Shown piece by piece: positions 10,023 to 32,486 of a stretch of 64,000 nt of DNA (the first letter of the stretch is position 1; the number at the start of each line of letters is the position of its first letter). The notes below the pieces were generated by a model that did not search any database, was not told the origin of the DNA, and saw only the letters and a list, made by a program, of their open reading frames with translations. The DNA lies in contig JAMPAG010000003.1 of the NCBI GenBank assembly GCA_023667365.1, forward strand, positions 16,384 through 80,383. The letters are read 5' to 3'. A program made the translations under genes and the position numbers. The stretch is from a bacterium. GTDB taxonomy: Bacteria > Bacillota > Clostridia > Lachnospirales > Lachnospiraceae.

Positions 10023-10116
10023 TTTCATCCTCCATGCCCGCAAAAACCTGCGCACGATCTTTTCCTATCGTTCCGGTCAGCCTGCGCATTCGTACTTCCG
10101 CATATGCAAAATTTCA

Positions 10117-10155: not shown

Positions 10156-11209
10156 TCTTCACGCTTTCACAGCTCATACCCGCAATCGCTTTCATATCCG
10201 CGTCCATCATCATCTTGACAAGCGCTTTGAAATCCACTTTGCGTTTCCATCCGAGTTCTTTTTCCGCCTTCTCACAGTTCCCCCAAAGAAACTCCACTTC
10301 CGCCGGACGGTAAAATTCCGGATTCACATCCACATAGAGCCTGCCGGTCTCCGCGTCGTATCCCTTCTCGTTCACGCCCTCACCCTCCCAGCGGATTGTG
10401 ATACCGAGATTGGCAAACGCCTCCTCGACAAATTCCCGTACCGTATGCGTCTCATTCGTCGCCAGCACATAATCCCCGCATTTATCCTGCTGGAGCATGA
10501 GCCACATACCCTCGACGTAATCGCCTGCAAACCCCCAGTCGCGCTTGGCGTTCATATTGCCGAGAGACAGCTTTTCCTGTTTTCCCGCCATGATATTTGC
10601 CAGCGCGAGTGTGATCTTTCTCGTCACAAAATTCTCTCCGCGCCGCGGCGACTCATGATTGAAGAGGATCCCGTTGCAGGTAAACATATTGTAGGATTCC
10701 CGGTAATTAACCGTGATCCAGTACGAATACAGCTTTGCCACACCGTACGGGCTTTTCGGATAAAAAGGCGTTTTCTCACTCTGCGGCGCCGTCTCCGGAA
10801 TGCCGCCGAACAGCTCGGAGGTGGACGCCTGATAATAGCGGCAGTTGCCGCCGTTGACGCGAATCGCCTCCAACAGCTTTAACGTGCTTGTCCCCGTCGC
10901 GTCCGCCGTATATTCCGGCACCTCGAAGGACACGCCGACATGGGACTGCGCCGCGAGATTATATACCTCCGTCGGACGAATCTCACCGATCAGCCGCATC
11001 AGATTGCTGGAATCGGTCGTATCCGCAAAATGTAAGAAAAATTTGATCTTATAATATTGGGAATGAATCAGATGATCGATACGCGCCGTGTTGGAAATAC
11101 TGTGTCTGCGGATCAATCCGTGCACCTCGTAGCCTTTTCCTAACAGAAATTCCGCCAGATAAGAACCGTCCTGCCCCGTAATACCTGTGATCAATGCGAT
11201 ATTGCTCAT
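10124..11209 (-). CDS. gmd: GDP-mannose 4,6-dehydratase
   Basis: [35 protein letters not shown]..., [36 protein letters not shown]. The C-terminal tail (...[10 protein letters not shown]) is encoded by palindrome 10117-10155. Confidence 0.93.
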
Positions 11210-11422
11210 ACTGTGAGCCCTCCTCATTCTATTTATGTTGGATAAAAAAATAATCTGATTTTGCGATTTCTTTTCAGAGTATACTATTGTATAATAATGG
11301 TATCAACCTATATTATTGCGAAAAAATTGTATTTTATTGCTATTTATACAAAAAAAAACGCGCGTCTGCTTTCCAACACTGCGCAGAGCAGAGAGCGCCG
11401 CCCCCCGAAAGAAGGCTTTCCC

Positions 11423-12259
11423 ATGGCAAAAACACAGTCCGAACGCGTCCTCGTCACCCCCTCCGCCTATGCAAAAGAGCATTACCTCTATGTGCAGGAG
11501 GTCGGCTCCCTGCAAAGCTTAGAACCCCATATCAGCAGCCGCAAAAACTTAAATTCCTATCTTTTTTTTGTCGTTTTAAGCGGACGCGGCACGCTGACCT
11601 ACCGGAACCAGACACAGGACTTAAAAAGCGGCGACTGCGCTTTTTTGGACTGCCGCAGTCCTTACGCGCACGAAAGCTCCGAAACGGAGCCGTGGCGTTT
11701 AACGTGGGTGCATTTTAACGGCGCGGACGCCGCACATTTTTACGAATCCTACGAAGAACAGGGGCGCGCTTTTTATTTCCGCCCTGTTAGTATACTTCCG
11801 TTTGTGGAAACTATCAGTCAATTATATGAGATCAGCCGCGACCGCACGTTCCTGAACGAGCTGAACGCCCATTGTCTTTTGACGGAGCTGGTCGCGCAGA
11901 TTTATTCGTGGCAGAACGAAACATCCGACACCGTACCCGCCAAGCTGCAGCAGATCCATGAATATATCCGGCTTCATTATGCCGAAAAGATCACGCTCGA
12001 CCTGCTGTCAGATTTGTTTTTTATCAGCAAATACCATATGTCGCGCGAATACCGGCAGGCATACGGCACAACGCTCGTCAGCGACATTGCGCAGCGGCGC
12101 ATTGCGCACGCCAAATCCGCGCTCCGCTTTTCCGAGCTGCCCGTCGAATCCGTCGCCGAGGAATCCGGATTTCCCGACTGCGCCTACTTTATCCACGTTT
12201 TCAAACGCGCCGAGGGCATGACGCCCCTGCAATACCGCAAAAAGTGGAGAAGCCTGTGA
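11423..12259 (+). CDS. AraC-family transcriptional regulator (cupin sensor + HTH), divergent from gmd
   Basis: Start chosen at MAKTQSERV (ATG 11423). N-terminal AraC-binding-like cupin (YLYVQEVGSLQ...WRLTWVHFNG). C-terminal HTH_AraC (LDLLSDLFFISKYHMSREYRQAYGTTLVSDIAQRRIAHAKSAL...GFPDCAYFIHVFKRAEGMTPLQYRK). Confidence 0.85.
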   Translation: MAKTQSERVLVTPSAYAKEHYLYVQEVGSLQSLEPHISSRKNLNSYLFFVVLSGRGTLTYRNQTQDLKSGDCAFLDCRSPYAHESSETEPWRLTWVHFNGADAAHFYESYEEQGRAFYFRPVSILPFVETISQLYEISRDRTFLNELNAHCLLTELVAQIYSWQNETSDTVPAKLQQIHEYIRLHYAEKITLDLLSDLFFISKYHMSREYRQAYGTTLVSDIAQRRIAHAKSALRFSELPVESVAEESGFPDCAYFIHVFKRAEGMTPLQYRKKWRSL

Positions 12260-12309
12260 ATCTGTCCGCGGCAGGCGGCCGCACGCAATACCGCAGAAAG
12301 CGGAAGCGT

Positions 12310-13410
12310 CTATGAGCGCCCGCGCTTCCGCAGACGACCCGACAGTTTCCGCAGCAGACATCCCAGCAGCCGCTCCAGCATCTTCAGGAGGACAGCGGCT
12401 GCAGTCGAGACTGCAAGCGCCGCCAAATACCCCAACAAATCCAGTCCAACATAAGATTTGACAAAAAAACATGCTTTTTCATACACAAATCCGTGTACCA
12501 GCCAGATATAGGTTGACTGCCCGCCCCACCACGCAAAAAGCGTCTCTAACGGTCTCACATAAGAGCACACCGTCAACAACCCGTAAGTCAGAAGCGGCGT
12601 CCATAGAAAATCCGTTCTTCCATAGGCGGGATCTTCCGCCAGCGCAACCCGCAATGTGATGACGACCGCGATCAGCACGATGGACAGACCAAGCGGCGCC
12701 CAGCGGTTTACCCTTTTTAACAGGCGGTCCGCCCTCTGATACACGCGGTAACGCGCCGCCAGATACCCCACCACAAAGATCAGTAGAAAAGAAACTCTGA
12801 GGCCGCGCCGGATGGCGGACAGCCACTCCCACAACGCGGGCTGCCACAGCGCGCCTGCCAGAACAACGGCCGCTCCTGCTGCCGCAAGGGAAGCATAAAA
12901 CAGCCGTTTCTTTTTTGTCTCCTCCCGTTTCTCAAACCGTGTCAACAGCAAATCCAGAAGCGGCAGCACCAAAAGCATCTTGGCATATTGTTCCACATAC
13001 CACCACGCCGCGTTATAAGTCGGCTGAAACGCCGTAAAATTTCCCCAGAACAGCGCCGGTGTGAACGGTCTTTTCAAAATGCCGAAAAAGCATACCATGA
13101 AGATCGTAAGCACAAGCCATAATTTTCCGTACAGTTTCAGTATCCGGCGCAGCACACGGCGGTACTCGTTACCCATTCTTCCAAAGAAACGCTCCCGCGG
13201 CTGCCTCTCCATCTCATAATACAGCCCGTACCCGCTGACAAACGCAAAAATCCCCACGCAGATTTTGCAGAACCATGCAATCCGCCTCGCTGCATCCGGC
13301 TGCATGAACGGGAGATACGACGTATATTCCGCTGCATACGAATACAAATGATGATACAGCAGCATCCAGACCGCCACACCCTGCATGAACGCCGACTGCT
13401 TCTTTGTCAT
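12310..13410 (-). CDS. Membrane O-acyltransferase (acyltransferase family 3, OafA/WecH-like)
   Basis: MTKKQSAFMQGVAVWMLLYHHLY..., about 10 TM segments, typical family-3 N-terminal motif. GGAGAA RBS at ATG 13410. Confidence 0.75.
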   Translation of the reverse strand: MTKKQSAFMQGVAVWMLLYHHLYSYAAEYTSYLPFMQPDAARRIAWFCKICVGIFAFVSGYGLYYEMERQPRERFFGRMGNEYRRVLRRILKLYGKLWLVLTIFMVCFFGILKRPFTPALFWGNFTAFQPTYNAAWWYVEQYAKMLLVLPLLDLLLTRFEKREETKKKRLFYASLAAAGAAVVLAGALWQPALWEWLSAIRRGLRVSFLLIFVVGYLAARYRVYQRADRLLKRVNRWAPLGLSIVLIAVVITLRVALAEDPAYGRTDFLWTPLLTYGLLTVCSYVRPLETLFAWWGGQSTYIWLVHGFVYEKACFFVKSYVGLDLLGYLAALAVSTAAAVLLKMLERLLGCLLRKLSGRLRKRGRS

Positions 13411-13441
13411 TCCGTTCTCCACATACCGCTCCTTTCGATCA

Positions 13442-13516
13442 GATCAGACAGAGGCATTTGCGAAACGCATTCTATAGGCTGCGCGATTGTGTTCCGCAAA
13501 TGCCTAAGATCAGACA
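13442..13516. mobile_element. MITE-like unit: 11-bp perfect terminal inverted repeats flanked by 9-bp direct repeats
   Basis: GATCAGACA g AGGCATTTGCG (32 nt) CGCAAATGCCT aa GATCAGACA, in the gap between the GtrII-like gene and the acyltransferase gene. Confidence 0.4.
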
Positions 13517-13538
13517 CCCGAATCTCATCCTGCCAATT

Positions 13539-15110
13539 TCAAAATTCACTCAGCTTAACGACCACAAAATCCTCCGTCTCTACAACGGACGCCGCCGCCG
13601 GCCAGCAGTCTATACCCGCGCTGAGAACCTCCGCTTCCGCCGTCTGCTCCACGGTCGGCGTCTCATAAGAAAAACCAAGCGTCTCAAAATATCCCAAAAT
13701 TCTGCCGGTGTTATAATAATTCGGCGTCTCAATGGGAACACCGTCCACAAACGCATATTCAAAAAGTGAATAAGAAAGAAACGATGCGGCCTCCTCTTTC
13801 GTGTAACACGAGCCGTTTCCCTTCGCATCCAGATGCCCCGTAAAGACGACCGGTTTTGTGCGTGCGGTATCGCTTAACGTGTCGATCCGGTTCATGATCT
13901 GCTGCGCCGTGATCCGGTCGGCGTCCCGCACCACATCCTGCGTATAAAACATCCGCATCAGCACGGACGCTTGGAAAAAGAGCAGGACATAGCCGCAGAG
14001 TATCCACAACTGCCGGCATACTTTTCTGCCGGGCAGATGCATCTGCAAAAAGCGGACCACAAACAGCCACATCGAAGCGCATACGAACGGCAGCATACAC
14101 TGCGCGCGGTATATCGTCGGCGTTCCCGTCACAATCGCAAGAAAAAACGGGGACGCCAGAACCGCGCCGACGCCGCAGAGCGCCGGAACACGATACTGCT
14201 TTTTTATGAAGAAATAAATCAAAACGCCCAAGCCCGCCACAGCGCACACGGCATAGGTAAGCGGGTAGAAAACATCGGTCGCAAGAAGAACATGTTTCCC
14301 ATATGCGAGCAGATTGCGGATGGTGCGTGCAAGATCGCCCGAAAACCAGCCGATCTGATCCGACAGATATGTCGTATTATTAAAAAACAGATTGGCAATG
14401 AGCTCATAGACTGCAAAGCCGATGAAAAAATGAAGCATCGACCACAGCACCTGCTTTTTCCGCTCCGCCGCCGTCTTTTGTTCCATGCAAAACAGATAAA
14501 GCACCAGATAAAAGCAAATCTGGAGATTGACCATGGACTGATAAATGCCAAAGGAAAAAATATCCATAACGACCGCAAGCGCAAACACCGCGGGATCCTT
14601 CTTTTCCAAAAAAAGAAGAAAATACCCGGACGCCGCCACGATCAGCAAGATCGCAAGCACGATCTCAAACGACTGGAAGCGGAACATATACTGATCCGCA
14701 TAGGTGGGGAAGATCAAAAACAGGCAGACAAAAACGAGGCTCACGGCATCGCTTTTCCCGCAGCCAAGCCTGGAAAACAGGCAGCAGCAGCACATTCCCG
14801 CCATCCACATCGTGATCAGAAACAGCGCCGCCGCCAGATACGGATTATACCAATGCATCCCCGTCAGACATTTGACCGCGATCAATCCGAATCTGCCGAT
14901 TCCGCCCCAGTTATAAAACGTGCGCGGGTAGTTCAGAATGACTTCCGCATCCACATAGAAGTCATTCGAATATGCCGCTTTCCCATAAACAAGCAGCAGC
15001 AAGGCGAATACCGCCGCGCTCAAAATCCTGTGTTCCCTGATATATAACGCGAACGCTTGAAACGGTACTGCTAAATTCTGTAACATTTTTTTCGTTTGAT
15101 TTTTATTCAT
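13539..15110 (-). CDS. Large polytopic membrane protein, GtrII-type (Glucos_trans_II-like) glycosyltransferase candidate
   Basis: YSNDFYVDAEVILNYPRTFYNWGGIGRFGLIAVK near the N-terminus resembles the GtrII family signature. About 12 TM segments plus a C-terminal extracytoplasmic domain. Start set at MNKNQ (15110) because the upstream ATG at 15176 lies in the 3' arm of terminator hairpin 15168-15207. The start is uncertain. Confidence 0.55.
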   Translation of the reverse strand: MNKNQTKKMLQNLAVPFQAFALYIREHRILSAAVFALLLLVYGKAAYSNDFYVDAEVILNYPRTFYNWGGIGRFGLIAVKCLTGMHWYNPYLAAALFLITMWMAGMCCCCLFSRLGCGKSDAVSLVFVCLFLIFPTYADQYMFRFQSFEIVLAILLIVAASGYFLLFLEKKDPAVFALAVVMDIFSFGIYQSMVNLQICFYLVLYLFCMEQKTAAERKKQVLWSMLHFFIGFAVYELIANLFFNNTTYLSDQIGWFSGDLARTIRNLLAYGKHVLLATDVFYPLTYAVCAVAGLGVLIYFFIKKQYRVPALCGVGAVLASPFFLAIVTGTPTIYRAQCMLPFVCASMWLFVVRFLQMHLPGRKVCRQLWILCGYVLLFFQASVLMRMFYTQDVVRDADRITAQQIMNRIDTLSDTARTKPVVFTGHLDAKGNGSCYTKEEAASFLSYSLFEYAFVDGVPIETPNYYNTGRILGYFETLGFSYETPTVEQTAEAEVLSAGIDCWPAAASVVETEDFVVVKLSEF

Positions 15111-15167
15111 ATCCCTATCCCGGATTTTCTGAGGAAACGCTTTGATTGGCATTTCCTCTGATTCAAG

Positions 15168-15207
15168 AAAATCCATACCACCGCCCGAAAACGATGGTAT
15201 GGATTTT
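15168..15207 (-). terminator. Intrinsic terminator after the secreted GH-like gene
   Basis: 13-bp perfect stem AAAATCCATACCA / TGGTATGGATTTT with a 14-nt loop, followed by CTT. It contains the ATG at 15176. Confidence 0.55.
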
Positions 15208-15246
15208 GAAAGTTATGATTTAAGTTTGACAAATGATCACACCGGA

Positions 15247-16827
15247 TCACTGTAATCCCAGCTGTGACCAACTGGACACACCGACGAACGGCGCGTATTG
15301 ATTGAGGCTGTCGCGGTCTACCATTTTATATACGGTATAGGCAGGCTTCGGCGTACCGTCGCTGTTCATCAGACCGTTCGCAAGTCCCTGCGCCACCTCT
15401 TCCGGAATATCAAGCATTGCACTGTACAATACCATCTTAATATACGGATTTGCCGCGATCAGCTTATAGGAATAAGCAATTGCCGCCGCCTGGATGTTCG
15501 CATCGTTTCCCGCACCCGCAGAGCTGAAGCCCAGCTCGGAAATAATGATGTTTCTGACAGCGCCCGTACGCGTCAGATACTGCGGCTGCTGGAAGTAATC
15601 CGTTACCACATTCATATTGAGCGGTGTAATCATCCTGGTATTGACCGAATTCGTAGCCAGTCCGCTGTACGCACGCGAAGTCGTCCAGAAGCTCGAATCC
15701 GTCAGAGGAACCGAATAAGGATGGAAGGAAAGACCCCAGTCAATATTTCCCGTTCTTAAAATTTCTGCATTAAAATTGTCAATAACAGGCTTTCCGCCAT
15801 AGGAGCTTCCGCCGTCATTGTGCAGCCATCTCTGATCGGTACAGATATAAACGTTTGCCGCGCTGTTATGACTCTTGATCGCGTTATATGCCACACGGAA
15901 CTGTCTTGCATAGTCCGCCGCGAACACTTCCACCGGAACCTCGCCTGCATAATGCCAGGAGTCGCTGCTGTTGACCTCGTTGCCGATGACATAGCTCTGT
16001 ACGGAACCGAGCTTGCCGCCGCTGTAGCGGTTCGCAAGGAACGACATGAATGCCGCGAACTTCTCCTCGCCCGCCTGTGTCGTCACATTCACCGAATAAT
16101 AGTGCGGATTCTTGCCTGTCCCAACCGCACCGGGATGAACCATGTCCGCCGTTCCCGCAGAAAGGCTGTTGACAACCATCATGCATATATCCGCATTCTG
16201 CGCATTGTAAAGAGCGACGATCAAATCCAACTCCTGTACCGCCTGCGCATTAAAGGCATACGCCTTGCCGTTATAAACATAATTGATACCGCCGCCGTTA
16301 AAGAAGTTCGCCGTATCAACCGTCGTTCCCGCATATCCCACGCCGAGATCGGAAAGGGTATGCGCATACGGCCAGTATGCCGTAATTCCCTTCTTATTGC
16401 CGGTCGCCTCGGAAATGCTGACTGTCGCTTGGGTCGCTACAGCCTCCGGGTTAAGAATATACATCTCATTACTTACCTGAACAAAAGAGGCGCCGCTCTT
16501 AACGGTCACAACAAATCTGGAATACAGTTTCGATGCGGCCGTGTCCAGATTTAAGGGTGTGGTAAAGACCACTCCGCCCGTAACCGGCACGCCGACCGCG
16601 CAATAATCCTGTCTTGCGCCGACCCCGGTCTCGTAAGGCTGTAATGCAAATAAGTAATACTGTCCGTCATCACCTGCTGCACTTCCGGTCGCAGCCACCT
16701 TCACCTGATCGCCTTCGATATAGCACAGTTGGATCGAAACGGTCGCCGCAGCAGCAGATACCGGCAGATGCAGCATCATGACCGCGACAAGCGCAACGAG
16801 CAGGCTGAGTCCCCATTTCTTTTTCAT
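15247..16827 (-). CDS. Secreted TIM-barrel glycoside-hydrolase-like protein (DUF5722-like)
   Basis: Signal peptide MKKKWGLSLLVALVAVMMLHLPVSAAAA. IGNEVNSSDSWHY (NE acid/base-type motif) and WGLSFHPYS are typical of clan GH-A-like folds found in EPS loci. GGAGGG RBS. Confidence 0.5.
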   Translation of the reverse strand: MKKKWGLSLLVALVAVMMLHLPVSAAAATVSIQLCYIEGDQVKVAATGSAAGDDGQYYLFALQPYETGVGARQDYCAVGVPVTGGVVFTTPLNLDTAASKLYSRFVVTVKSGASFVQVSNEMYILNPEAVATQATVSISEATGNKKGITAYWPYAHTLSDLGVGYAGTTVDTANFFNGGGINYVYNGKAYAFNAQAVQELDLIVALYNAQNADICMMVVNSLSAGTADMVHPGAVGTGKNPHYYSVNVTTQAGEEKFAAFMSFLANRYSGGKLGSVQSYVIGNEVNSSDSWHYAGEVPVEVFAADYARQFRVAYNAIKSHNSAANVYICTDQRWLHNDGGSSYGGKPVIDNFNAEILRTGNIDWGLSFHPYSVPLTDSSFWTTSRAYSGLATNSVNTRMITPLNMNVVTDYFQQPQYLTRTGAVRNIIISELGFSSAGAGNDANIQAAAIAYSYKLIAANPYIKMVLYSAMLDIPEEVAQGLANGLMNSDGTPKPAYTVYKMVDRDSLNQYAPFVGVSSWSQLGLQ

Positions 16828-16893
16828 TCGCTTTCCCTCCATAGAAAATCATCATGTCACACTCCCGCTTTCCTTAGAAGCGAGAATATGAGA

Positions 16894-19885: not shown

Positions 19886-20734
19886 TCAGCACTTCCCGAT
19901 ATATGCCGCGATCGCGTCCTTCCAATGGGCAAACCGGAAATCGGTCGTCATGCGCAGCATATAGTTATCAAGCATCGAATAGGCGGGACGCTTCGCGGGC
20001 GACGGATATTCCGCCGTCGTGATATACTCCACCTGCGTACTCTTTCCCGCAAGCCGGAAGATCTCCGACGTGAATTCCGCCCAGGAACAGCTTCCCTCGC
20101 AGGTGCCGTGGAACAGCCCATAATTGTCCGTCGGCAAAAGATAGGCGATCGCCGCCGCCAGTTCGTCGGCGCTGGTCGGATTTCCGATCTGATCCTTTAC
20201 CACATGCACCTTCTCATTCGTCTCGGAAAGTTTCAGCATTGTGCGGACAAAATTTTTCCCCTCCCCATACAGCCACGCCGTACGGATGATAAAATAACGG
20301 TCCGCGAAATCACGCACAAACTGTTCTCCCGCAAGCTTGCCGCTTCCGTAGGCGCTCACCGGTCCCACCGCGTCAAACTCGTTCAGCTCCCGGTTCTCCG
20401 TACCCGGAAACACATAATCCGTCGATACCTGGACAAGCTTTGCCCCCGTCTGTGACGCTGCGATCGCTAAGTTGCGCGGACCGATCGCGTTGATGCGGAA
20501 TGCCAGATCTTTTTCGGACTCGCACTTATTGACGTCCGTATACGCCGCGCAGTTTATGATCGCATAGGGTTTCACCTCACGCGCAAACCGCATGACTGCA
20601 TCCACATCCGTAATGTCCAGTTCCCCCACATCCGTGTTCACACATTCATATTCCGCGCTCGTCTCATACAGCCGGTTCATCGCATGTCCAAGCTGCCCGT
20701 TACAGCCCGTGATAATGATCTTTTTCATTTTCAT
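19886..20734 (-). CDS. rfbD: dTDP-4-dehydrorhamnose reductase
   Basis: MKMKKIIITGCNGQLGHAM..., VSTDYVF, YGSGKLAGE (YxxxK), PAKRPAYSMLD. No rmlA/B/C in the window. Confidence 0.88.
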   Translation of the reverse strand: MKMKKIIITGCNGQLGHAMNRLYETSAEYECVNTDVGELDITDVDAVMRFAREVKPYAIINCAAYTDVNKCESEKDLAFRINAIGPRNLAIAASQTGAKLVQVSTDYVFPGTENRELNEFDAVGPVSAYGSGKLAGEQFVRDFADRYFIIRTAWLYGEGKNFVRTMLKLSETNEKVHVVKDQIGNPTSADELAAAIAYLLPTDNYGLFHGTCEGSCSWAEFTSEIFRLAGKSTQVEYITTAEYPSPAKRPAYSMLDNYMLRMTTDFRFAHWKDAIAAYIGKC

Positions 20735-20763: not shown

Positions 20764-20821
20764 ATAGGCGATTGCGAAAAGCAGTCAATTGCGTTCACGA
20801 TTGCTTTTCGCAATCGCCTAT
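20764..20821. repeat. 20-bp perfect inverted repeat with an 18-nt spacer, overlapping the wzx stop codon
   Basis: ATAGGCGATTGCGAAAAGCA gtcaattgcgttcacgat TGCTTTTCGCAATCGCCTAT. No U-tract on either strand. Confidence 0.8.
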
Positions 20822-22347
20822 TTCTTACTTCTAAGCTGCCCGATCATGGCAAATCCAAGCTTTTTTAAGTAAGCAAATTCCTCGCTGTTCCTATATGCAA
20901 GATAATACCCCACATTCGGGATGCTCATGCAAAAAAGCACTTTCACCGCCAATGCGCCGATACCGCCGAAGGGCAGCAGACCGGATAACCATACGATCAG
21001 CGCGAACAACGCCGCCGTTAAGAGCGCCGCCTTTGCATATCCCAGAAAATAACGGCGCACCGGCATGGAAAACGCCTGCCTGTATATGAGACAGGGATCG
21101 TACCACCATGTCGTCAGAAGCCAGCTTATGATCGTGCCTGCGATCACGCCTGCAAGCCCGATATACCGCACAAGCACGATCGAGATCACAATATTGAGAA
21201 CCGCGGTCGCCACAGGGCGCGCCTTCCCTTTCCAAAACAGCCCGCAGGCATCGCGATAAATAAAGGACGTCCGCTGAAACCCGTTGATCATAAAATAGAG
21301 TACCTGCAAAAACACAAGCTCCCACGAGAACACACGGGATGTGCCAAAGCAGAGACGGATGAGGGGATTCAGGCAGACGAACATACCGATCCCCAGCAAT
21401 GTATACACCCAATAACAAAGCAATTGGATGCAGCGGAATACAAACTCGTTATGCTCTCTGGTATCCTCTGCATAATAGTTACCGACCGTCGCCGTCACCC
21501 CGCCGAACAACTGCATCGCCACCTGTGAGACGCCGGAAATGATCAACTGATAATTCCCGTATAACGCCACCGTCTTCACATTGATAAAGGCGGAAATGAC
21601 AAGGTTATCCGTGGAATTGACGACCGTCGTGTTCATCTTAAAAAGGGACATCCCCGATACGTCGCGGAACAGACTTTTCTTTTCTTCCTTTGTCAGCCTG
21701 CGGTACGTCCGCTCTTTCAGGTAAGGATACCGCCGGTCCACCTCCCGCGCCGAAAACAGATTCACAAGGACCGCGGCAAACAGCCCGATCACCGAGTAGA
21801 GCATAAAATTCCGGAACATTGCAAGCGTCACGAGCTGCAGCACGGTGACGATCACATTTGCGAGCACATGATAAAAGCGCACGATGTAAAGCTTCTGATC
21901 CGCCTGTAACAAAATCGCCTTATACGCCCAAAACCAATAGGACGCCGCCGATTGCAGCACATACAGCATATAGATTACGCGGACATCCACAAGCCCGGTC
22001 GTCCCCGTCATCAGCCATGGCAAAAAAGGAAGCAGCGCCGCGCCCAACACGACAACTACCCAGCCGATGACAAAATAGGCCCTGCGAAAATAGCGCATGA
22101 CCGATTTCACCGTTTCCCGGTCGCCCCCCGCGAGCGGCTGATACAGCCGGAAACAGACCGCCGTGGACAATCCTAATTCCGTCAGGCTCAAAATGGACAG
22201 AATATTCGTGAACAGACTGGAAATCCCCAGGTATTCGTCGCTTAAAAAACGAATGAATACGACACGCCCGATAAACTGCAGCAGACCGACGAGCAAAGTT
22301 CCCAAACCGCCCGCGAGCGTGTTCACGACCGCATTTCTACTCCTCAT
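20818..22347 (-). CDS. wzx: Oligosaccharide-unit flippase (Wzx, MOP superfamily)
   Basis: 509 aa, about 14 TM segments, N-terminal NTLAGGLGTLLVGLLQFIGRVVFIRFLSDEYLGISSLF typical of the Polysacc_synt family. Start overlaps the stop of the upstream gene. Confidence 0.8.
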   Translation of the reverse strand: MRSRNAVVNTLAGGLGTLLVGLLQFIGRVVFIRFLSDEYLGISSLFTNILSILSLTELGLSTAVCFRLYQPLAGGDRETVKSVMRYFRRAYFVIGWVVVVLGAALLPFLPWLMTGTTGLVDVRVIYMLYVLQSAASYWFWAYKAILLQADQKLYIVRFYHVLANVIVTVLQLVTLAMFRNFMLYSVIGLFAAVLVNLFSAREVDRRYPYLKERTYRRLTKEEKKSLFRDVSGMSLFKMNTTVVNSTDNLVISAFINVKTVALYGNYQLIISGVSQVAMQLFGGVTATVGNYYAEDTREHNEFVFRCIQLLCYWVYTLLGIGMFVCLNPLIRLCFGTSRVFSWELVFLQVLYFMINGFQRTSFIYRDACGLFWKGKARPVATAVLNIVISIVLVRYIGLAGVIAGTIISWLLTTWWYDPCLIYRQAFSMPVRRYFLGYAKAALLTAALFALIVWLSGLLPFGGIGALAVKVLFCMSIPNVGYYLAYRNSEEFAYLKKLGFAMIGQLRSKK

Positions 22348-24797
22348 AATCCTATTTTCTCCCGCAGCGCGTCCTGATACATCTGTTTCTTTTTTTCCTT
22401 ACTGTATTTCGGTATCATGTTGTAGAGTGCGAGCTCGCCAAGCGCATAATCCATCAGTGCGTATGAAAAATCCTTGTCGTTGACCACTTCGTCCGGCAGG
22501 TCCACCTTTTCTCCATCTTTCGTACAGGCGAACGCCTTTTCCCATTCGGCATGCTGCGACTCGCAGATTTCCTCCGCAGACGCCGGCGCCGTCACAAACG
22601 CATCCTCGCAGTGTTCCCACGCCGCCGTACCGCGGTCCGTATAGAGCAGTACGCTGCTCGTTCCCTTTTTGTCACTGTTTTTTCCTGTATAATTGTCGCC
22701 GACGGAAATATCCGCCTGCCGGTTGAATTTATCGTCGCATTCCACACAGCGGCGCAGCGTAAAGAAATCCTTGACACACATGCGCTCTTTCGCGCTGACG
22801 TCCATACTGCTCCCGTCCTCAAAGACAAAGCGCATATCTCCCGGCCAGCCGCCCGCGCGCTTATCCCTGAAATAAATATCCCTGATCTGCCCGGATTCCT
22901 TGATTCTTTTGGGATAACGCGTCCTGAAATAATCGTAAAAAGAATATGTCAGCGCGCGGTCGCAGAACAGCCCGATAATCAGCACATGCTCCCGGTCCGC
23001 GCCGGAAAGCTTCATCGCTTCCAAAAGCCCATAGACAGCGCAGGCGCAACCCACAAAAATACTGCGTTTTTCAGGGTGCGCAAGGATTCCGCTCACCGCG
23101 TTCTGATGTGACACCGGAACATAGCGCGATTTCTGTGTCGTGCTTAAGTCCTCACCCGGCAGAAATTCTCTTGTGCTGAGCTGGTACTCATCGTCAAAGC
23201 CCTCGACAAGATACGCATTGTCATACACGCCGTCCCGCAAAAGCCTGTCCACCATAGCCGTCACAACGCCGCCGCTCGTCGCCCGCATCAGAAGCTCCTC
23301 GTCCTTTGCCTGCGCAGTCAGCGCACGGTGCGGCATTGCGGCGGGGATTCTGTGCGTGCGTGCCAGACCGTAACATACGCGGACACACCTTCCGCAATGA
23401 ATGCACAATTTTCTGTCCACGATCGGCAGATAATATCCGGACCTCCGTTCAAAATGAATACACTCCGCCGGACAGACCACGGCACAGATCCTACAGCAGA
23501 CACACTCCCTTTCATCCTCGACATTGCACACGTCCTCGTCTTCATCCTTCCTGATTCCGCTCGATTTTTGGGACCGGTCGATAATATCAAATACATTCCC
23601 TCTTTGCAGCTTTACAAGCTTCTCCCCGATTTTGACCGCCTCGTCCGCATAACGCTCTTCCATGCGCGCGATCGGCTCATCTATCGCATCCGGCTGCTGC
23701 GTTCTGACATCAATTTCATATTTCTGTTGATCAAACAGCTTTAACAGCTCCTGATATTTGACCGCCCAGCCCGGTACGATGCAGGGCGTTCCTTCCTTAT
23801 AGGCATGAACGACCGCATGATAGCGGGAGGCTATCAGATAATCGAAGCGCGCCGCGAGTGCGCTATAGGCAAAACAGTCCATTTCCTCTTCCAGCAGCAC
23901 GACCCGCCGGTCTTTTTCATAAAATGATTTGATCCGTCGGCAGACGTCCCGGTCCTGCACCGCATGACGGATGATATACACCGTCCTTCCCATTTCCAAA
24001 AACTTCTCGATCGCCCTGCGGTACAACGCATCCATCTGCCCTGCCCCGCCATACCGGTCGTTGCGCACGTTCGGCACAATGCCGACACTGTGCGGCGCAA
24101 TCTCCGGGATTTCCGGCTCCTCCGCATACCAATTGCGCGCCAGAACGGTATCCGGCACCACTTCTTCCCCACGCGGACGCGGCGGACACCTGAAAAGCTC
24201 TCTTCGATCCACTCCGCGATTTGTCAGAACAATATCCGGCGCATACCGAACCAAGGGCATGTCATAATATCGCCTGAGCAGTTCACACCCCTGCTGCTCC
24301 CTGCCAAACAGCATTCTTGCCTTGAGAAGCCACGGCCGCATATAGCGGTCCGCTATTTTTTTCCGGATCCCCTTCCACTCAAACGGTCCGAAAGACTGCG
24401 GCATGAAATAGATCGGGCAACACATTCTTATCGCCATCGGAACACGGTACGCCGCGAGCAGATTTGCCAAAAGCCCCCAATTCGATCCAAACGTATATCC
24501 GCTGACGTCAATGATCATATCCGTATGTTTTCGGATATATGCCGCATCCCCGTGCCTGTCCAGCCTGCCGTAACGATGCTGCAGCAGCTTATATTTCCAC
24601 CCGTATATGCATACGCCGTCCCGAAACAAAAATTTATATTTTGCCAGCTCCCCGTCGCTTCTTGCGGCGTCCACATCGGAAATGACGACGACTTCCTTGT
24701 CCGGGAAACGCCGTTTCACTTCGTCTACCGCTACAAAGACCATCGCCTGTGCGCCTTTATTGATCAGGTTTCCCCCTGTGATCAGAACGTATCCCAT
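22344..24797 (-). CDS. Fusion protein: polysaccharide pyruvyl transferase (N) + 2x[4Fe-4S] ferredoxin + coenzyme F420 hydrogenase/dehydrogenase beta-subunit-like (FrhB) domains (C)
   Basis: N-terminal MGYVLITGGNLINKGAQAMVFVAVDEVKRRF...ASRYHAVVHA (PS_pyruv_trans-like). Middle CVCCRICAVVCPAEC...CIHCGRCVRVC. C-terminal ATSGGVVTAMVDRLLRDG...FVGCACAVYGL...GLFCDR...RCVECDDKFNRQADISVGD (FrhB_FdhB N and C domains). GGAGGG RBS. Confidence 0.8.
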   Translation of the reverse strand: MGYVLITGGNLINKGAQAMVFVAVDEVKRRFPDKEVVVISDVDAARSDGELAKYKFLFRDGVCIYGWKYKLLQHRYGRLDRHGDAAYIRKHTDMIIDVSGYTFGSNWGLLANLLAAYRVPMAIRMCCPIYFMPQSFGPFEWKGIRKKIADRYMRPWLLKARMLFGREQQGCELLRRYYDMPLVRYAPDIVLTNRGVDRRELFRCPPRPRGEEVVPDTVLARNWYAEEPEIPEIAPHSVGIVPNVRNDRYGGAGQMDALYRRAIEKFLEMGRTVYIIRHAVQDRDVCRRIKSFYEKDRRVVLLEEEMDCFAYSALAARFDYLIASRYHAVVHAYKEGTPCIVPGWAVKYQELLKLFDQQKYEIDVRTQQPDAIDEPIARMEERYADEAVKIGEKLVKLQRGNVFDIIDRSQKSSGIRKDEDEDVCNVEDERECVCCRICAVVCPAECIHFERRSGYYLPIVDRKLCIHCGRCVRVCYGLARTHRIPAAMPHRALTAQAKDEELLMRATSGGVVTAMVDRLLRDGVYDNAYLVEGFDDEYQLSTREFLPGEDLSTTQKSRYVPVSHQNAVSGILAHPEKRSIFVGCACAVYGLLEAMKLSGADREHVLIIGLFCDRALTYSFYDYFRTRYPKRIKESGQIRDIYFRDKRAGGWPGDMRFVFEDGSSMDVSAKERMCVKDFFTLRRCVECDDKFNRQADISVGDNYTGKNSDKKGTSSVLLYTDRGTAAWEHCEDAFVTAPASAEEICESQHAEWEKAFACTKDGEKVDLPDEVVNDKDFSYALMDYALGELALYNMIPKYSKEKKKQMYQDALREKIGL

Positions 24798-24812
24798 AAA
24801 CGCCCTCCATTC

Positions 24813-26081
24813 TTACTCCGCTTTGCCCGTCAGCGCGGTGTAAATCCGCTCAACTGCCACGGTATTGTGCTGTGCGGTAAAATATTCTTTTGCATAGCGG
24901 TATGCCTCTGCGCCCATGCGCGCGATCTCCTGCGGCTGTTCCAAAAAATAACGCATTTTCTCCGCCAGCGCCGCCGCATTCCCGCTCTCAAATAAAAGTC
25001 CGTTCTGCCCGTCACGAATCAGTTCGGGCGTTGCCCCGCTGTCCGCACCGATGACCGGATTGGAGGAAAGCATGGCTTCCGCCGTCACTCTCCCGAACGC
25101 CTCCATACCGGAACAGACAAGCTCCACATCTGTCTTTTTTCTGAGCGCCGCCATATCGGACACATGCCCCGCGAACGTAACGATCCCTTCCGGCAGCTTC
25201 CCTGCCTGCACTTTCAGGCGCTCCTCAAACGCCTTTGAGGAGCGCAGTGCGGACGCCGCCCCCGCGATCACGAGCCGCACACCGCAAAAACCCTGCGCAA
25301 GCAGAAGCCTGCACGCTTCCACTGCAAGCTCCTGATGCTTGCCTTCATGGAAATTGCCCGCAATGAGAAAGGTGATTATCGATGCCTCATCCGTCCGGCT
25401 CCGTCCGTCCATTCCCGATAAGCGCCGTATTCCTGTCCCGGACTGCATATCTGTCATCCGGCACGGTTTCCCGCTCTCTCCTTCGGGATACTTCTCATAT
25501 ATCCATTTTTCGGAAATGCCGTTATAGACCACCGTGCAGTGTGTATCCGGTATTTCCTGCTCATAATACCGGCGCAGACATTGCGAAATGAATACGATCT
25601 TCCCCGGAACCTGCACGGCGCGGCGCGCGCTTTCCTGTTTTCCCCGCAAATACATTAAATCGTAATCCAGATCGCCGAACTCGCGGAAGTGCCACACATG
25701 CGGCAGTCCGCACAGCTTTGCCGCGCGTGCGCCGACATCAATCGCGCTGGAGTTCGAATGAATCAACTGCGCATGTCTTTTCTCCGCCGTCAGCGCGATC
25801 CGCCGCACCGCACAGGGCTCCGTCAGATACAGCCCGCGAAACAGCAGTTTCATCAAGGGATTCCATGCCTTCGGCATCATCCACCAGCCGAAAAATATTT
25901 TTTTCACAGGAATGTCCTGTTCTTTCAGCGCGCGGTAAACCTGCCCCGACCGAAAAGGAACAATCACAGTCACCGTATGTCCGCGGCGCTTCATGTCCGC
26001 CGCCATCGTGACGAGTGATTTCGATGCGCCGCCCAGATTCCGTTCATGTGCCACATACAGGATATTCATTTCAGCCGTCAT
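24813..26081 (-). CDS. Family 4 (GT-B, Glycos_transf_1) glycosyltransferase
   Basis: Start at MTAEMNILYVAHERNLGGASKSL (ATG 26081). EAFGRVTAEAMLSSNPVIGADSGATPELIRDGQNGLLFE is the EX7E region. The 98 upstream codons of the track ORF overlap the DUF2304 gene. Confidence 0.85.
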   Translation of the reverse strand: MTAEMNILYVAHERNLGGASKSLVTMAADMKRRGHTVTVIVPFRSGQVYRALKEQDIPVKKIFFGWWMMPKAWNPLMKLLFRGLYLTEPCAVRRIALTAEKRHAQLIHSNSSAIDVGARAAKLCGLPHVWHFREFGDLDYDLMYLRGKQESARRAVQVPGKIVFISQCLRRYYEQEIPDTHCTVVYNGISEKWIYEKYPEGESGKPCRMTDMQSGTGIRRLSGMDGRSRTDEASIITFLIAGNFHEGKHQELAVEACRLLLAQGFCGVRLVIAGAASALRSSKAFEERLKVQAGKLPEGIVTFAGHVSDMAALRKKTDVELVCSGMEAFGRVTAEAMLSSNPVIGADSGATPELIRDGQNGLLFESGNAAALAEKMRYFLEQPQEIARMGAEAYRYAKEYFTAQHNTVAVERIYTALTGKAE

Positions 26082-26101
26082 GTCCTTTCCGTACGCTCTC
26101 T

Positions 26102-26479
26102 TTATGCTCCCTTTCCGCTTTCCCGGTCCCTGTCCCCGCCTTCCAGCCGACGGATCCGCTCCTCGCAGAGCGCCACGGCCTGCACAAGCTGTTTGATCCG
26201 TTCCGACTGCCGCGACACAATGACCGTCAGCGCAAAAATCAGGCAGACTGAAAATAAGAATGCCGCCAGATACAACGCGTTGACCGGCGTCGCAATGCCG
26301 AGCAGATCGGCAAGCACGGACAACAGCTTTGGAAAACAGTCCACGATCAGCGCCGCAAAGGACACCGCCAGCCACGGCAGCGCATATTTCAGTTCCATTC
26401 TTCTTTTACGGATCAGGCGGATGATATACAGCATCCCCAGCAGCAGAACCGCCGCGCCGATCAATTGCAATTTCACCAT
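26102..26479 (-). CDS. DUF2304 small membrane protein
   Basis: MVKLQLIGAAVLLLGMLYIIRLIRKRRMELKYALPWL...LLGIATPVNALYLAAFLF...SERIKQLVQAVALCEERIRRLE is the typical DUF2304 pattern. AAGGAG RBS. Lies directly downstream of a soluble GT2, as usual for this family. Confidence 0.8.
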   Translation of the reverse strand: MVKLQLIGAAVLLLGMLYIIRLIRKRRMELKYALPWLAVSFAALIVDCFPKLLSVLADLLGIATPVNALYLAAFLFSVCLIFALTVIVSRQSERIKQLVQAVALCEERIRRLEGGDRDRESGKGA

Positions 26480-26492: not shown

Positions 26493-27185
26493 TTAGTATC
26501 GCCTCATGTCTTCTATCAATATGGCAAACGTCACCTTACACATATAGTAAATGCTTTTTGTAAAGGAGATCGAGGATTTCCCGTTCTCGCGCTCCCGCAT
26601 TTTTACAGGCGCTTCCTCCACCCGTTTTCCCTGCCGCAGCAGGCAGACGACGCTCTCCGGCTCAGGATAGTCCTTCGGATAATTCTCGGCAAACGTCTCT
26701 ATGACATCGCGGTTCGCCATCCGCATGCCCGATGTGGGGTCCGTGATCTTTTTTCCGGTTGAGATCCGGATGAGTTTCGCAAAATAACGGATTCCCAGCC
26801 GTCTCATTCCGGATGACTGGAAACCCTCATGCATGAGGAACCGGGAACCGATCACCATATCCAGCTTCTCCTGTATGAGTTTTTCGCGCATCTTTGCCAG
26901 ATAAGCGGCGTCATGCTGCCCGTCGCCGTCGAACTGCACCGCCACATCATATCCGTTCTGCTTTGCATAACGGTACCCCGTCTGCACTGCACCGCCAATC
27001 CCCAGATTCACGGGCAGATTTAAGACATGCAGTCCCTCTTCCCTGCACAGCGCGAGCGTACTGTCCCGGGAACAGTCGTTGATGATGATATAATCAAAAT
27101 CAGGCGCGTTCTTCTGAATATCCCGCACCGTCTTTACGATATTTTGTTCTTCATTATATGCCGGTATCATGACAAGACTTTTCAT
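26493..27185 (-). CDS. Family 2 glycosyltransferase (DPM1-like, DUF2304-associated)
   Basis: MKSLVMIPAYNEEQNIVKTVRDI...IIINDCSRDST...QFDGDGQHD. AGGAGAAGG RBS. Confidence 0.85.
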   Translation of the reverse strand: MKSLVMIPAYNEEQNIVKTVRDIQKNAPDFDYIIINDCSRDSTLALCREEGLHVLNLPVNLGIGGAVQTGYRYAKQNGYDVAVQFDGDGQHDAAYLAKMREKLIQEKLDMVIGSRFLMHEGFQSSGMRRLGIRYFAKLIRISTGKKITDPTSGMRMANRDVIETFAENYPKDYPEPESVVCLLRQGKRVEEAPVKMRERENGKSSISFTKSIYYMCKVTFAILIEDMRRY

Positions 27186-27212
27186 CTGCCTTCTCCTATG
27201 CGCCGGAATCGT

Positions 27213-27947
27213 TCACAAGAACTGCTTCAGCACCCTGAGCGTCCTGCACAGATCCGTAAACCAGGCAAAGCGGATCCCGTTCTCTTTGAGCGCGCGGTGC
27301 CCTTCTTTCAAAGATAACAGATATGCAGAAAGCCCCTGATTGCTTGTCCCGCCGTAATTCATGCGGATGAGTACCTCCGGGACATAGGCAAGGCGCACCT
27401 GCCCGTCCTTTAAGCAGCGCACCATAAATTCATAATCGGCGGAAATGCGGTAATCCGTCCGATAAAGACCGTAGCGTTCGTACACTTCACGACGCAGATA
27501 AAACGTCGGATGTCCCGGCATCCAGCCGAAACGCAGACGCCCCTGTCCCTGTCTCCATTTCCTCACAATCTTACCGTCCCTGCAATAATCAAGATCGGCA
27601 TGTACGCCGTCCGTATGCGCCTCCTCCATTGCAGAAACAAGCCTGCGCACCGCATAGGGTTCCGTCAGTTCGTCAAAGCAGCAGCCGATCACATCGCCAT
27701 GCGCCATGCGGATTCCTTTGTTGATCGCATCATAAATCCCCTCGTCCGGCTCGGAGCAGATCTTCATCCGCTCCCCAAACCATTCTTTTGCCGCCGCAAG
27801 AACCTGCGGTGTCCGATCCGTGGATGCGCCGTCCACTACAATGTATTCCAATTCCGCATAGTCCTGCCTCCTGACGCATTCAATGATCCGCTCTAAATGA
27901 TCCGCATCGTTATATGTAGCTGTAATGATCGAAACCTTAAGTCCCAT
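27213..27947 (-). CDS. Family 2 glycosyltransferase (WcaA-like)
   Basis: MGLKVSIITATYNDADHLERIIECVRRQDYAELEYIVVDGASTDRT. Start is either ATG 27947 or TTG 27953. Confidence 0.85.
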   Translation of the reverse strand: MGLKVSIITATYNDADHLERIIECVRRQDYAELEYIVVDGASTDRTPQVLAAAKEWFGERMKICSEPDEGIYDAINKGIRMAHGDVIGCCFDELTEPYAVRRLVSAMEEAHTDGVHADLDYCRDGKIVRKWRQGQGRLRFGWMPGHPTFYLRREVYERYGLYRTDYRISADYEFMVRCLKDGQVRLAYVPEVLIRMNYGGTSNQGLSAYLLSLKEGHRALKENGIRFAWFTDLCRTLRVLKQFL

Positions 27948-28006
27948 AACCAAAGTGCCCTCTTTGTTCTTCTCAAGTCAACGTTCGATCTTTTCCGAGT
28001 GTCTCC

Positions 28007-28078: not shown

Positions 28079-29926
28079 TTACAAGTAATAGGGTACGATC
28101 CCCAGCCTCCAGTTACAATAAAGAAGCAGCGCCGCCATGATACCGAACAAAATCTGGCCATACCGCTCCTCGCCCCATTTCCACACAAACCTGCCGTTCA
28201 AGAAGCAGGCAAAAAACGGAAACAGCACCGGTGTGAAATACCGGTCCTGCACACCGACGATCGCATCGCTGCCAACCGCATTGAAAGACATATAAAGAAC
28301 CGTCCACACAACGGCGGACATGCCGAATACCATCACCGCAAAGCATACGATATGACCCGCCTTCATCCGGCTGCGCTGCTCCGACCTGCAGCCGACGAGC
28401 GCCGCAAACGCCGCCGTGCCAAAAAAGATCCATGTGCAAAGCGTGCCGGGCGTACTCATATACGCATACATCAAAAACTGGTCCTTCCCCGTAAACCAAT
28501 CCGCGACCCGCCCAAACATGGTGGTAAGCAGCAGCCGCGCATAAGAAAACGGCGCGCCGAAAATATGCTTTAACTGCCCAAGCATATTCGTTCCCTCCAT
28601 GCGCGTATCTCCCGCGTGAGAAAGCGTCTCCATCGCAGAACCGCCAGCCGCGGATTTGGCGAGGATCTCATACATCATGCATGCGCACAGCAGCGTCAAC
28701 ACCCCGCGGAACAGCCACGCGGCACGCTTTGACGGAAATTTCTCATTTCCCAAAAACAGCAATAAAAGCCCCATCAAAATATAAACCGGCTTCGCATAAC
28801 TGCCGATAATGAGGCAGATCAGGACCGCCGCCGCCCTGCGCGGACGCAGCCTCTCCTTCGGCGCAAAAAACTCATTTGCCGTCAGAACCATGCCCAGCAG
28901 CAAAAAGCTGTTCACACAGGCGTCATAGCAGAACTGCGATGCCGAAAAAATACTGTTCGGCAAAAGCGCAATCACTGCGACAAGTCCTTTTCCCTGCCTT
29001 GCTGTCCGGACTGCAAAAAAACACACGATCGTATACAAAAGCAGATTCCCGAACTTACCGAGCATCAGCATTGCCGCAAGCGGCAGTTTCAGCATTCTGC
29101 CGATCGCGATCATGAGCGCCATCGGCAGATAGGCGCGCCTGTCATAATAAACCATTTTGGTCTGCCGATAGACATCCGCGCTATCATAATCATGGATCCC
29201 CTGTAAATACTCCTCCACTGCCGTGCGCTCCCAACGATTTTGAAAATGCGGCGCGCGCAGTGACTTTAGCTCCAGAATCGCCTCCGTATCATAGACCGTT
29301 CCGACAAACGAAAGATTCCACGCCTTACTGATATGCGTCTGCTCGTCATAACTGATCTGATTCGTCCCCGTCATCAGGATCAGATGCATTCCCGCTGCCA
29401 GCGCGATCACCGCAAACGCATATTCCGGCCTCTTTGCCATAAACCGGCGCCCCAGCCATAAAAATGCCGCCAATCCGAATGCGGTGCAGAAAAATAACAT
29501 GCGATATGGACTCCACTCCACAAAATTGGCGGCTGTGAGCGTACCTTCTGAAGCCGGTGCGCATGAAAGCGTCAGCACAAGTCCTGCCGCCTGCGTGCGC
29601 AGATTGAGTACGCTTGCTTTCAGCTTCGGCGAAATCGTCCCCGTCCACGCAGAAAGCTCACCACCCTGCTCATCCAGCAATACCAGCTGATAGTCCACAT
29701 CCTCCTCAAACTCGGCTGCAATCCGCACGGTTTTCACATAACAGGTTTCCCCCAATTCCAGAACAGTACCGGTGCCGCCGGCTTCTATAGGACTCTGCGC
29801 CTCATAATTTTTTCCGAACAATGCGTGTGCGTTAAAAAAGAACAGCTCCGCCAGCACGGAAAGCAGAAGCACTGCCGCTGCGGCTGCAGAAACGTGTAAC
29901 GCCCGGATCCTCTGCGTTTTCTTCAT
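28079..29926 (-). CDS. DUF2142 polytopic membrane protein (GT-C-like glycosyltransferase candidate)
   Basis: 615 aa. N-terminal TM, then an extracytoplasmic domain, then more than 10 TM segments. ISYDEQTHISKAW motif. Genomic association with GT2 + DUF2304. ATGA overlap with the upstream gene. Confidence 0.6.
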   Translation of the reverse strand: MKKTQRIRALHVSAAAAAVLLLSVLAELFFFNAHALFGKNYEAQSPIEAGGTGTVLELGETCYVKTVRIAAEFEEDVDYQLVLLDEQGGELSAWTGTISPKLKASVLNLRTQAAGLVLTLSCAPASEGTLTAANFVEWSPYRMLFFCTAFGLAAFLWLGRRFMAKRPEYAFAVIALAAGMHLILMTGTNQISYDEQTHISKAWNLSFVGTVYDTEAILELKSLRAPHFQNRWERTAVEEYLQGIHDYDSADVYRQTKMVYYDRRAYLPMALMIAIGRMLKLPLAAMLMLGKFGNLLLYTIVCFFAVRTARQGKGLVAVIALLPNSIFSASQFCYDACVNSFLLLGMVLTANEFFAPKERLRPRRAAAVLICLIIGSYAKPVYILMGLLLLFLGNEKFPSKRAAWLFRGVLTLLCACMMYEILAKSAAGGSAMETLSHAGDTRMEGTNMLGQLKHIFGAPFSYARLLLTTMFGRVADWFTGKDQFLMYAYMSTPGTLCTWIFFGTAAFAALVGCRSEQRSRMKAGHIVCFAVMVFGMSAVVWTVLYMSFNAVGSDAIVGVQDRYFTPVLFPFFACFLNGRFVWKWGEERYGQILFGIMAALLLYCNWRLGIVPYYL

Positions 29927-32474: not shown

Positions 32475-32486
32475 CAGCATTGCGGT

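Follow-up and report, generated by a model that had tools for sequence, protein, structure and literature searches.

A pyruvyl transferase fused to ferredoxin-like and FrhB-like domains in a Lachnospiraceae glycan locus, proposed to act as a bifunctional lactyl-ether synthase

The window analysed here is a stretch of 64,000 nucleotides from the genome of an uncultured Lachnospiraceae bacterium (assembly GCA_023667365.1, contig JAMPAG010000003.1, positions 16,384 to 80,383), and coordinates refer to this window unless another sequence is named. On its minus strand, at 22344..24797, the ORF (open reading frame) list and translation show a single uninterrupted frame of 817 codons, which encodes a fusion of a pyruvyl transferase, a ferredoxin-like domain with two [4Fe-4S] motifs and an FrhB-like flavoprotein domain, as seen by Pfam and in a full-length AlphaFold2 model. 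A Shine-Dalgarno sequence, GGAGG (24804..24808, minus strand), precedes the start codon (ATG, at 24797) by 6 nt, and at the other end the stop codon and the beginning of a flippase gene share the sequence ATGA (22344-22347). The G+C content of the gene (0.536) is similar to that of the window (0.524). The maximum Kyte-Doolittle value of the protein over 19-residue windows is 1.53, i.e. none reaches transmembrane hydrophobicity, and we propose that the enzyme is soluble, cytoplasmic and bifunctional.

From the N-terminus, the protein starts with a PS_pyruv_trans (PF04230) domain (residues 1-405, 23583..24797), delimited by Pfam, invariant columns and Foldseek, whose Pfam match covers residues 13-341 at 66.3 bits against a gathering cut-off of 25.3. 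It is followed by a variable acidic linker (residues 406-424, 23526..23582), recognised by its low predicted local distance difference test score (pLDDT) and its poor conservation, and by the ferredoxin-like domain (residues 425-480, 23358..23525) with two CxxCxxCxxxC(P) motifs; the Fer4-family Pfam matches in this part (residues 421-476) are weak, at or below their thresholds, and the assignment also draws on the cysteines and on an alignment to F420-dependent sulfite reductase (Fsr, 7np8). The FrhB/FdhB-like flavoprotein domain (residues 491-745, 22563..23327) matches both FrhB_FdhB_N (PF04422; residues 493-564, 36.4 bits, cut-off 22) and FrhB_FdhB_C (PF04432; residues 578-733, 70.6 bits, cut-off 23.3), in agreement with its predicted structure and Foldseek matches. 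The remaining residues, 746-817, form a helical, lysine-rich tail (22344..22562 with the stop codon). The initial annotation had described one 817-residue ORF with a PS_pyruv_trans-like N-terminal part and an FrhB_FdhB N- and C-like C-terminal part, and had called for a hidden Markov model scan; the scan has now placed three domains above curated cut-offs, the uninterrupted frame and the fold of the N-terminal part bear the description out, and the minus strand can be added to it. The ferredoxin motifs that it quoted are likewise present, i.e. CVCCRICAVVCPAEC (C432/435/438/442) and CIHCGRCVRVC (C465/468/471/475).

The AlphaFold2 model of the full-length protein reached a pLDDT of 87.2 and a predicted template modelling score (pTM) of 0.77, and that of the C-terminal half, built with 24 sequences, a pLDDT of 90.6 and a pTM of 0.91. 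In the full-length model, residues 408-420 of the linker have a pLDDT below 50, i.e. are predicted to be disordered, residues 211-221 form a low-confidence loop, and the tail contains helices at 774-788 and 795-814. By Foldseek, the C-terminal half has the FrhB fold, matching F420-reducing modules (8riu_B, E 6e-18; also 8rja_E), Fsr (7np8_A, E 2e-15), FrhB itself (6qgr_B, E 7e-15; also 4ci0 and 9r51) and Arabidopsis HCAR (5dqr_B, E 9e-15). In the full model, the N-terminal half resembles GT-B enzymes, with E-values of about 1e-7 to 1e-8; no solved pyruvyltransferase was among the listed top Foldseek matches, and a PDB sequence search with this half returned only chance viral-capsid matches (E about 0.04).

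The putative cofactor ligands are strongly conserved. In an alignment with 24 relatives, all eight cysteines of the ferredoxin motifs (C432/435/438/442, the last followed by P443, and C465/468/471/475) are invariant or nearly so, and in the FrhB part C586, C612, C684 and C687 are invariant in the 24 relatives as well as in three Escherichia coli homologues; S508-G509-G510 is also invariant in this domain. The N-terminal half of Fsr has the same ferredoxin-plus-FrhB layout as the C-terminal half of the fusion; the ferredoxin parts of the two align, and C586 and C684/C687 match Fsr cysteines. The invariance of the four FrhB-part cysteines, together with the Fsr-matching ones, makes a third [4Fe-4S] cluster likely, so that the protein probably holds three such clusters, not two, and a flavin, with the ligation deduced from these conserved positions. 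Among 23 homologues with the same domain order, the invariant residues of the pyruvyl transferase domain include N13-K14-G15, D97/S99/G100, Q134-S135, R166-E167, S324-R325-x-H327, H331 and K347. According to PMC10435577, R148, H308 and K328 of the Paenibacillus alvei pyruvyltransferase CsaB are critical for binding phosphoenolpyruvate (PEP). The spacing of R166, H327 and K347 (161 and 20 residues) resembles that of the CsaB residues (160 and 20), a match of spacing only and not of an alignment, which suggests that the two triads may be equivalent.

The fusion is a genuine and recurrent architecture. A copy with 95 % identity that spans residues 1-817 occurs in an independent metagenome-assembled genome labelled Clostridium sp. 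A single-protein search for related loci returned only one close relative. A protein collection clustered at 90 % identity contained 28 clusters with the same three families, and an exhaustive HMMER search across 1.84 billion representatives yielded 12,934 matches at E ≤ 1e-3 and 653 at E ≤ 1e-30. We sorted 172 relatives into classes by BLAST of each half: 27 have the same order as our protein (pyruvyl transferase, ferredoxin, FrhB) and 63 the opposite one (ferredoxin, FrhB, pyruvyl transferase), both typically about 820 aa long, 43 are stand-alone transferases (typically about 397 aa), 38 are stand-alone ferredoxin-FrhB proteins (typically about 420 aa), and one (P0028, 765 aa) has no significant match to either half. 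Fused forms therefore make up 90 of the 172 classified relatives, and close relatives in the split state also occur.

These data bear on the explanation that the single frame arose by an assembly or sequencing artefact merging two genes, to which we attach practically no credence. The linker is poorly conserved and of variable length in the alignment, and nothing else was found in support of an artefact; against it stand the full-length copy in the independent genome, the fusions in both orders in public data, the continuity of the alignment across the junction and a frame without stops. A frameshift had been named beforehand as the observation that could undo the fusion, and the corresponding check, which drew on the independent copy and on the recurrence of fusions, revealed no artefact.

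In a FastTree phylogeny of the pyruvyl transferase domains the fused and split states interleave, and well-supported branches force at least five changes between them, a rough number of fusion or split events given the quick tree method and the several long branches. Our protein falls within a clade of 22 members with 100 % support, 21 of which are fused. A survey of fused versus separate forms across Clostridia, which had also been suggested by the initial annotation, was run on 301 sampled genomes: 61 have a match at E ≤ 1e-10, these matches are mostly stand-alone ferredoxin-FrhB ORFs of 380-450 aa, and open frames of 770-818 aa occur in about five genomes. Therefore, the fusion is the minority form in this sample.

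Another reading takes the C-terminal module for a true F420-dependent oxidoreductase, in line with its Pfam name and with its nearest solved structures, which are F420-reducing or F420-oxidising modules. We hold this to be very improbable. The genome, which is 91 % complete, contains no match to CofD (TIGR01819) or CofG (TIGR03550), although control profiles respond, which makes F420 an unlikely cofactor, as had been supposed before; moreover, the same module is present in O-antigen clusters of E. coli. E. coli is not known to produce F420. Dependence on F420 was therefore rejected on account of the missing CofD and CofG matches and the presence of the module in E. coli, and the C-terminal module, while in the FrhB fold family, probably stands outside its F420-dependent enzymes. 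The family does have a ferredoxin-dependent member in BciB, annotated as frhB in cyanobacteria, a flavin adenine dinucleotide (FAD)/Fe-S protein that takes electrons from ferredoxin to reduce a vinyl to an ethyl group (PMC4836224), and HCAR is among the structural matches. Both resemble the fusion in the FrhB fold, in occurrence outside methanogens and, going by the cofactors and electron donor predicted for the fusion, in Fe-S clusters, FAD and ferredoxin as electron source, but differ from it in acting on tetrapyrroles, in lacking a fused transferase and in the arrangement of the N-terminal clusters.

A functional clue comes from enterobacterial O-antigen clusters. An E. coli genome was reached via a gnd 33-mer, and a PF04432 search of 401 Enterobacteriaceae genomes gave two matches, whose loci were then compared by blastn with 5,426 complete E. 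coli genomes. Three E. coli cluster types with an FrhB-like and a PS_pyruv_trans gene emerged, all between galF and gnd. In the cluster named 'O124/O164 family' by PGAP, the gene for an FrhB_N+C protein is directly followed by the PS_pyruv_trans gene; in that named 'O69 family' the order is FrhB-like, wzx, PS_pyruv_trans; and the third, found in IAI1 (NC_011741.1, 2159297-2181333) and seven other complete genomes, has an adjacent pair within the order flippase, FrhB-like, PS_pyruv_trans, EpsG-type polymerase, GT2 glycosyltransferase, galE and glycosyltransferase, and bears no PGAP O-type name. The first two types are associated with lactyl-bearing antigens, in which Glc (O124) or GlcNAc (O69) bears the lactyl group (PMC7685785). 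According to the same review, O164 differs from O124 solely in that Glc replaces the lactyl sugar, owing to a frameshift in wfeP. Consistent with this account of the lactyl-free O164, the transferase gene of the O124/O164-family cluster is split into coding sequences of 411 and 702 nt in strain TUM18780 (NZ_AP023197.1, locus 11095-12230). For Shigella boydii 17, the title of Senchenkova et al. 2006 also links two genes to glucolactilic acid. The enterobacterial gene pair is thus already known to be linked to glycolactilic acids. The fused form is common in databases. The earlier statement that the role of the redox partner is not established was too strong in view of that title and of the wfeP frameshift described in the review.

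Like the fusion, the enterobacterial pair brings PS_pyruv_trans together with an Fe-S protein of the FrhB_N/FrhB_C type, in a glycan cluster of the Wzx/Wzy kind, and the E. coli FrhB-like proteins are homologous to its C-terminal half and share eight cysteines with it, i.e. those of one ferredoxin-type and of the FrhB cluster. Unlike the fusion, which belongs to a Gram-positive-type anaerobe, it consists of two separate proteins. If pairing of the two families is the decisive feature, the IAI1-type glycan should carry a lactyl ether.

A second line of evidence comes from loci in which the partner has been replaced. In a survey of 79 Klebsiella capsule loci (PMC4616057), a 'coenzyme F420 hydrogenase' lies beside the pyruvyltransferase gene wcqF in K66 only, a nitroreductase accompanies the pyruvyl transferase wclZ in K22 and K37 only, and K8, K22, K37 and K66 have pyruvyl-transferase genes despite non-pyruvylated capsules. 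The K22 and K37 capsules bear lactyl-GlcA but no ketal, and by a title cited in PMC3857182, the K22 capsule contains 4-O-[(S)-1-carboxyethyl]-D-glucuronic acid. As far as the published descriptions allow a comparison, K66 and K22/K37 resemble the fusion in having a pyruvyl transferase-family gene with a flavoreductase partner, but the genes are separate, and the reductase of K22/K37 is of an unrelated fold. We inspected the gene surroundings of six stand-alone transferase relatives, four of which lie on informative contigs. Relative P0082 (42 % identity) has a Fer4/FrhB_C protein two genes away and P0089 (41 %) an FrhB N+C protein four genes away, whereas P0088 (39 %) is followed by a flippase and then a PF00881 nitroreductase (contig from Logan ERR10905743, 4909-8513), the same arrangement, with a nitroreductase instead of an FrhB-like protein, as that reported for Klebsiella K22/K37. 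The contigs of P0033 and P0093 are too short to be informative, the gene after P0033 on its short contig being not FrhB-like. The presence of an unrelated flavoreductase in the partner's place indicates that what this subfamily of transferases requires is a simple reduction. A chemical precedent exists in FbiB, whose nitroreductase-type domain is reported to reduce the enolpyruvyl group of dehydro-F420-0 to a lactyl group.

Taken together, we favour, with somewhat better than even confidence, the reading that the fusion acts as a bifunctional lactyl-ether synthase of a Wzx-type surface-glycan pathway. The PF04230 domain would transfer an enolpyruvyl (1-carboxyvinyl) group from PEP to one hydroxyl of a sugar, most likely within an undecaprenyl-diphosphate-linked repeat unit before flipping. 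Ketal closure by a second hydroxyl would then not take place, and the C-terminal module would instead reduce the C=C bond to give a 1-carboxyethyl (lactyl) ether, the electrons passing through the two ferredoxin-type [4Fe-4S] clusters and the third cluster of the FrhB domain to the flavin, which would deliver the hydride. The likely electron donor is reduced ferredoxin rather than F420. Enolpyruvyl transfer followed by reduction to a lactyl group had already been put forward in the initial annotation, and the pairings in O124/O164, O69 and K22/K37 support it; the data themselves show the architecture and its recurrence, the FrhB fold, the conserved cluster cysteines, the lack of detectable F420 biosynthesis genes and the association of the gene pair with lactyl-bearing antigens, while the enol-ether intermediate, its reduction and the electron donor are inferred, as are the identity of the flavin, the acceptor sugar and the stereochemistry of the ether. 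The proposal shares its logic with MurA/MurB, i.e. transfer of enolpyruvyl from PEP to a sugar hydroxyl and flavin-dependent reduction to a D-lactyl ether. However, the folds are unrelated, that of MurA being the EPSP-synthase fold and MurB an NADPH-dependent FAD_binding_4 enzyme, whereas in the fusion electrons would enter via Fe-S clusters and the substrate is probably lipid-linked; neither the MurA nor the MurB family is among the Pfam or NCBIfam matches of the fusion, so that the resemblance is one of logic only.

Several observations weigh against the proposed lactyl-ether synthase. No biochemical assay of any member of the pyruvyl transferase/FrhB-like group was found in the literature searched, where a search on lactyl ethers and pyruvyl groups gave nothing but a paper on MurNAc recycling. 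The pyruvyl transferase domain and the E. coli O69 transferase, although both PF04230, give no significant BLAST match (E 0.39), and the FrhB-like partner from the O124/O164 cluster is only 24 % identical to the C-terminal half (E 1e-9); with the transferases too diverged for BLAST and the FrhB parts this distant, the link to the enterobacterial systems is one of family and pairing, not of orthology. Enterobacterial partners keep CxxCxxC and a distal Cys-Pro but have no second ferredoxin cluster, whereas the clostridial forms keep both. Furthermore, no reductase was seen in the 9.7 kb around the stand-alone transferase P0095, the disordered linker means that the model supports no claim of a channel between the active sites, and the review cited above speaks of UDP-GlcLA synthesis, i.e. 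of modification at the level of the nucleotide sugar (PMC7685785).

The low similarity to the E. coli transferase also speaks for an unlikely alternative, in which the transferase makes an ordinary pyruvate ketal and the Fe-S flavoprotein has another role, such as reduction of a keto-sugar or of an unsaturated substituent, or redox sensing that gates pyruvylation. Every PF04230 enzyme whose biochemistry has been characterised forms ketals (CsaB; review PMC6801904), and the domain keeps residues that apparently match the CsaB PEP-binding triad, with no detectable orthology to the lactyl-associated transferase of E. coli. The ketal-forming enzymes CsaB, WcaK and Pvg1p are indeed of the same family, with a GT-B fold and the apparent PEP-binding Arg, His and Lys, but they stand alone, need no redox partner and form cyclic ketals, whereas the fusion has a covalently attached reductase and an open lactyl ether as its predicted product. 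In particular, E. coli genomes without any PF04432 match encode WcaK, the ketal former of colanic acid; therefore, an FrhB-like protein is not needed for ketal formation, and WcaK and similar ketal formers work in genomes without such a gene. Moreover, the gene pair tracks lactyl-bearing antigens, and the Klebsiella capsules concerned are listed as non-pyruvylated (PMC4616057). The exchange of the partner for an unrelated flavoreductase fits a simple reduction better than a specialised second function, and the occurrence of fusions in either domain order speaks for a direct coupling of the two activities.

A variant of the lactyl-ether synthase reading differs in the acceptor alone, and its probability is counted within that reading: UDP-Glc, dTDP-Rha or another nucleotide sugar would undergo the same coupled chemistry, and a glycosyltransferase would then incorporate the lactyl sugar. 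It would follow the logic of MurA/MurB, and it is the level at which the review places the enterobacterial modification, although the UDP-GlcLA wording there is an assignment and not an assay. We regard this variant as improbable, as characterised PF04230 enzymes such as CsaB use lipid-diphosphate-linked oligosaccharides, and as the fusion gene comes after the glycosyltransferase genes and is coupled in translation to that of the flippase.

It is tempting to extend the proposal to a general rule for the PF04230 'pyruvyl transferases', with about an even chance of being right: alone, these enzymes would make ketals, and together with a flavoreductase, be it FrhB-like or nitroreductase-like, separate or fused, the enol ether would be trapped and reduced, the fusion then being a self-contained, ferredoxin-driven and F420-independent version of such a synthase that acts on a lipid-linked glycan. 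Lactyl (1-carboxyethyl) ethers have been known for decades on O antigens, capsules and exopolysaccharides, and the exopolysaccharides of rumen Butyrivibrio also bear them. A literature search for papers on lactyl sugars of Butyrivibrio returned nothing relevant, and, muramic acid aside, no biochemical account of lactyl-ether synthesis was found in the literature searched. If true, the proposal would define a second route to sugar lactyl ethers, unrelated to MurA/MurB, in roughly a fifth of the sampled Clostridia species, and a single polypeptide with both proposed activities would be the easiest object for an in vitro test of the chemistry. Thousands of glycan loci of non-methanogens could then lose the label 'coenzyme F420 hydrogenase beta subunit', which is misleading, in favour of a better one. 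The pairing rule, i.e. a lactyl ether from transferase plus flavoreductase and a ketal from the transferase alone, would also predict acid-stable charged epitopes from sequence, which are important for how phages and antibodies recognise gut bacteria, and for enterobacterial serotyping.

Apart from a DUF3048 gene, the neighbours of the fusion gene in the glycan locus are co-oriented with it on the minus strand. Directly downstream, with a 4-nt overlap and therefore translationally coupled, lies the gene for a Wzx-type flippase of 509 aa (20818..22347), which is Polysacc_synt/MatE-like with 26.1 bits in Pfam, below the cut-off of 28.2. Further downstream follow RmlD, the dTDP-4-dehydrorhamnose reductase (19886..20734; RmlD_sub_bind, 310 bits), and a DUF2142 protein (16968-18386), and at 7876..16842 Pfam recognises ManC, a short-chain dehydrogenase/reductase-type epimerase/reductase, a GDP-mannose 4,6-dehydratase, an Acyl_transf_3 protein, a GtrII-like GT-C glycosyltransferase and a DUF5722 protein. 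On the upstream side lie a GT4 glycosyltransferase of 520 aa (24813..26375; Glycos_transf_1 and Glyco_transf_4), two GT2 glycosyltransferases of 230 and 246 aa (26493..27953; Glycos_transf_2) and another DUF2142 membrane protein of 615 aa (28079..29926). From this gene content, the locus serves a Wzx-type surface or cell-wall glycan pathway, with rhamnose and a 6-deoxyhexose derived from GDP-mannose as probable sugars. Between about 7.8 and 30.6 kb of the window we saw neither a Wzy nor a chain-length regulator nor an initiating phosphoglycosyl transferase, and the product may be, instead of a classical capsule, a cell-wall polysaccharide that is decorated extracytoplasmically.

The GtrII-like protein and the two DUF2142 proteins bring the predicted GT-C-type or large membrane proteins of the locus to three (13539-18386 and 28079-29926). 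The DUF3048 gene (18613-19773, plus strand) lies on the opposite strand and breaks the run of co-directional glycan genes, and on the upstream side the locus is adjoined by genes of the leuA type (2-isopropylmalate synthase) and of the cdaA, ybbR (cdaR) and glmM types (30591-36437). The genome contains only two PS_pyruv_trans domains, both fused to FrhB-like modules. The second belongs to a larger fusion of 1673 aa on contig C65 (1817-6838 of the extracted locus, minus strand), in which PS_pyruv_trans, Fer4, FrhB_N and FrhB_C domains are joined to a hexapeptide acyltransferase repeat and two short-chain dehydrogenase domains; its gene comes after a GT2/GlfT2-like gene and an ABC-2 transporter pair, i.e. 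in an ABC-transporter-dependent glycan locus.

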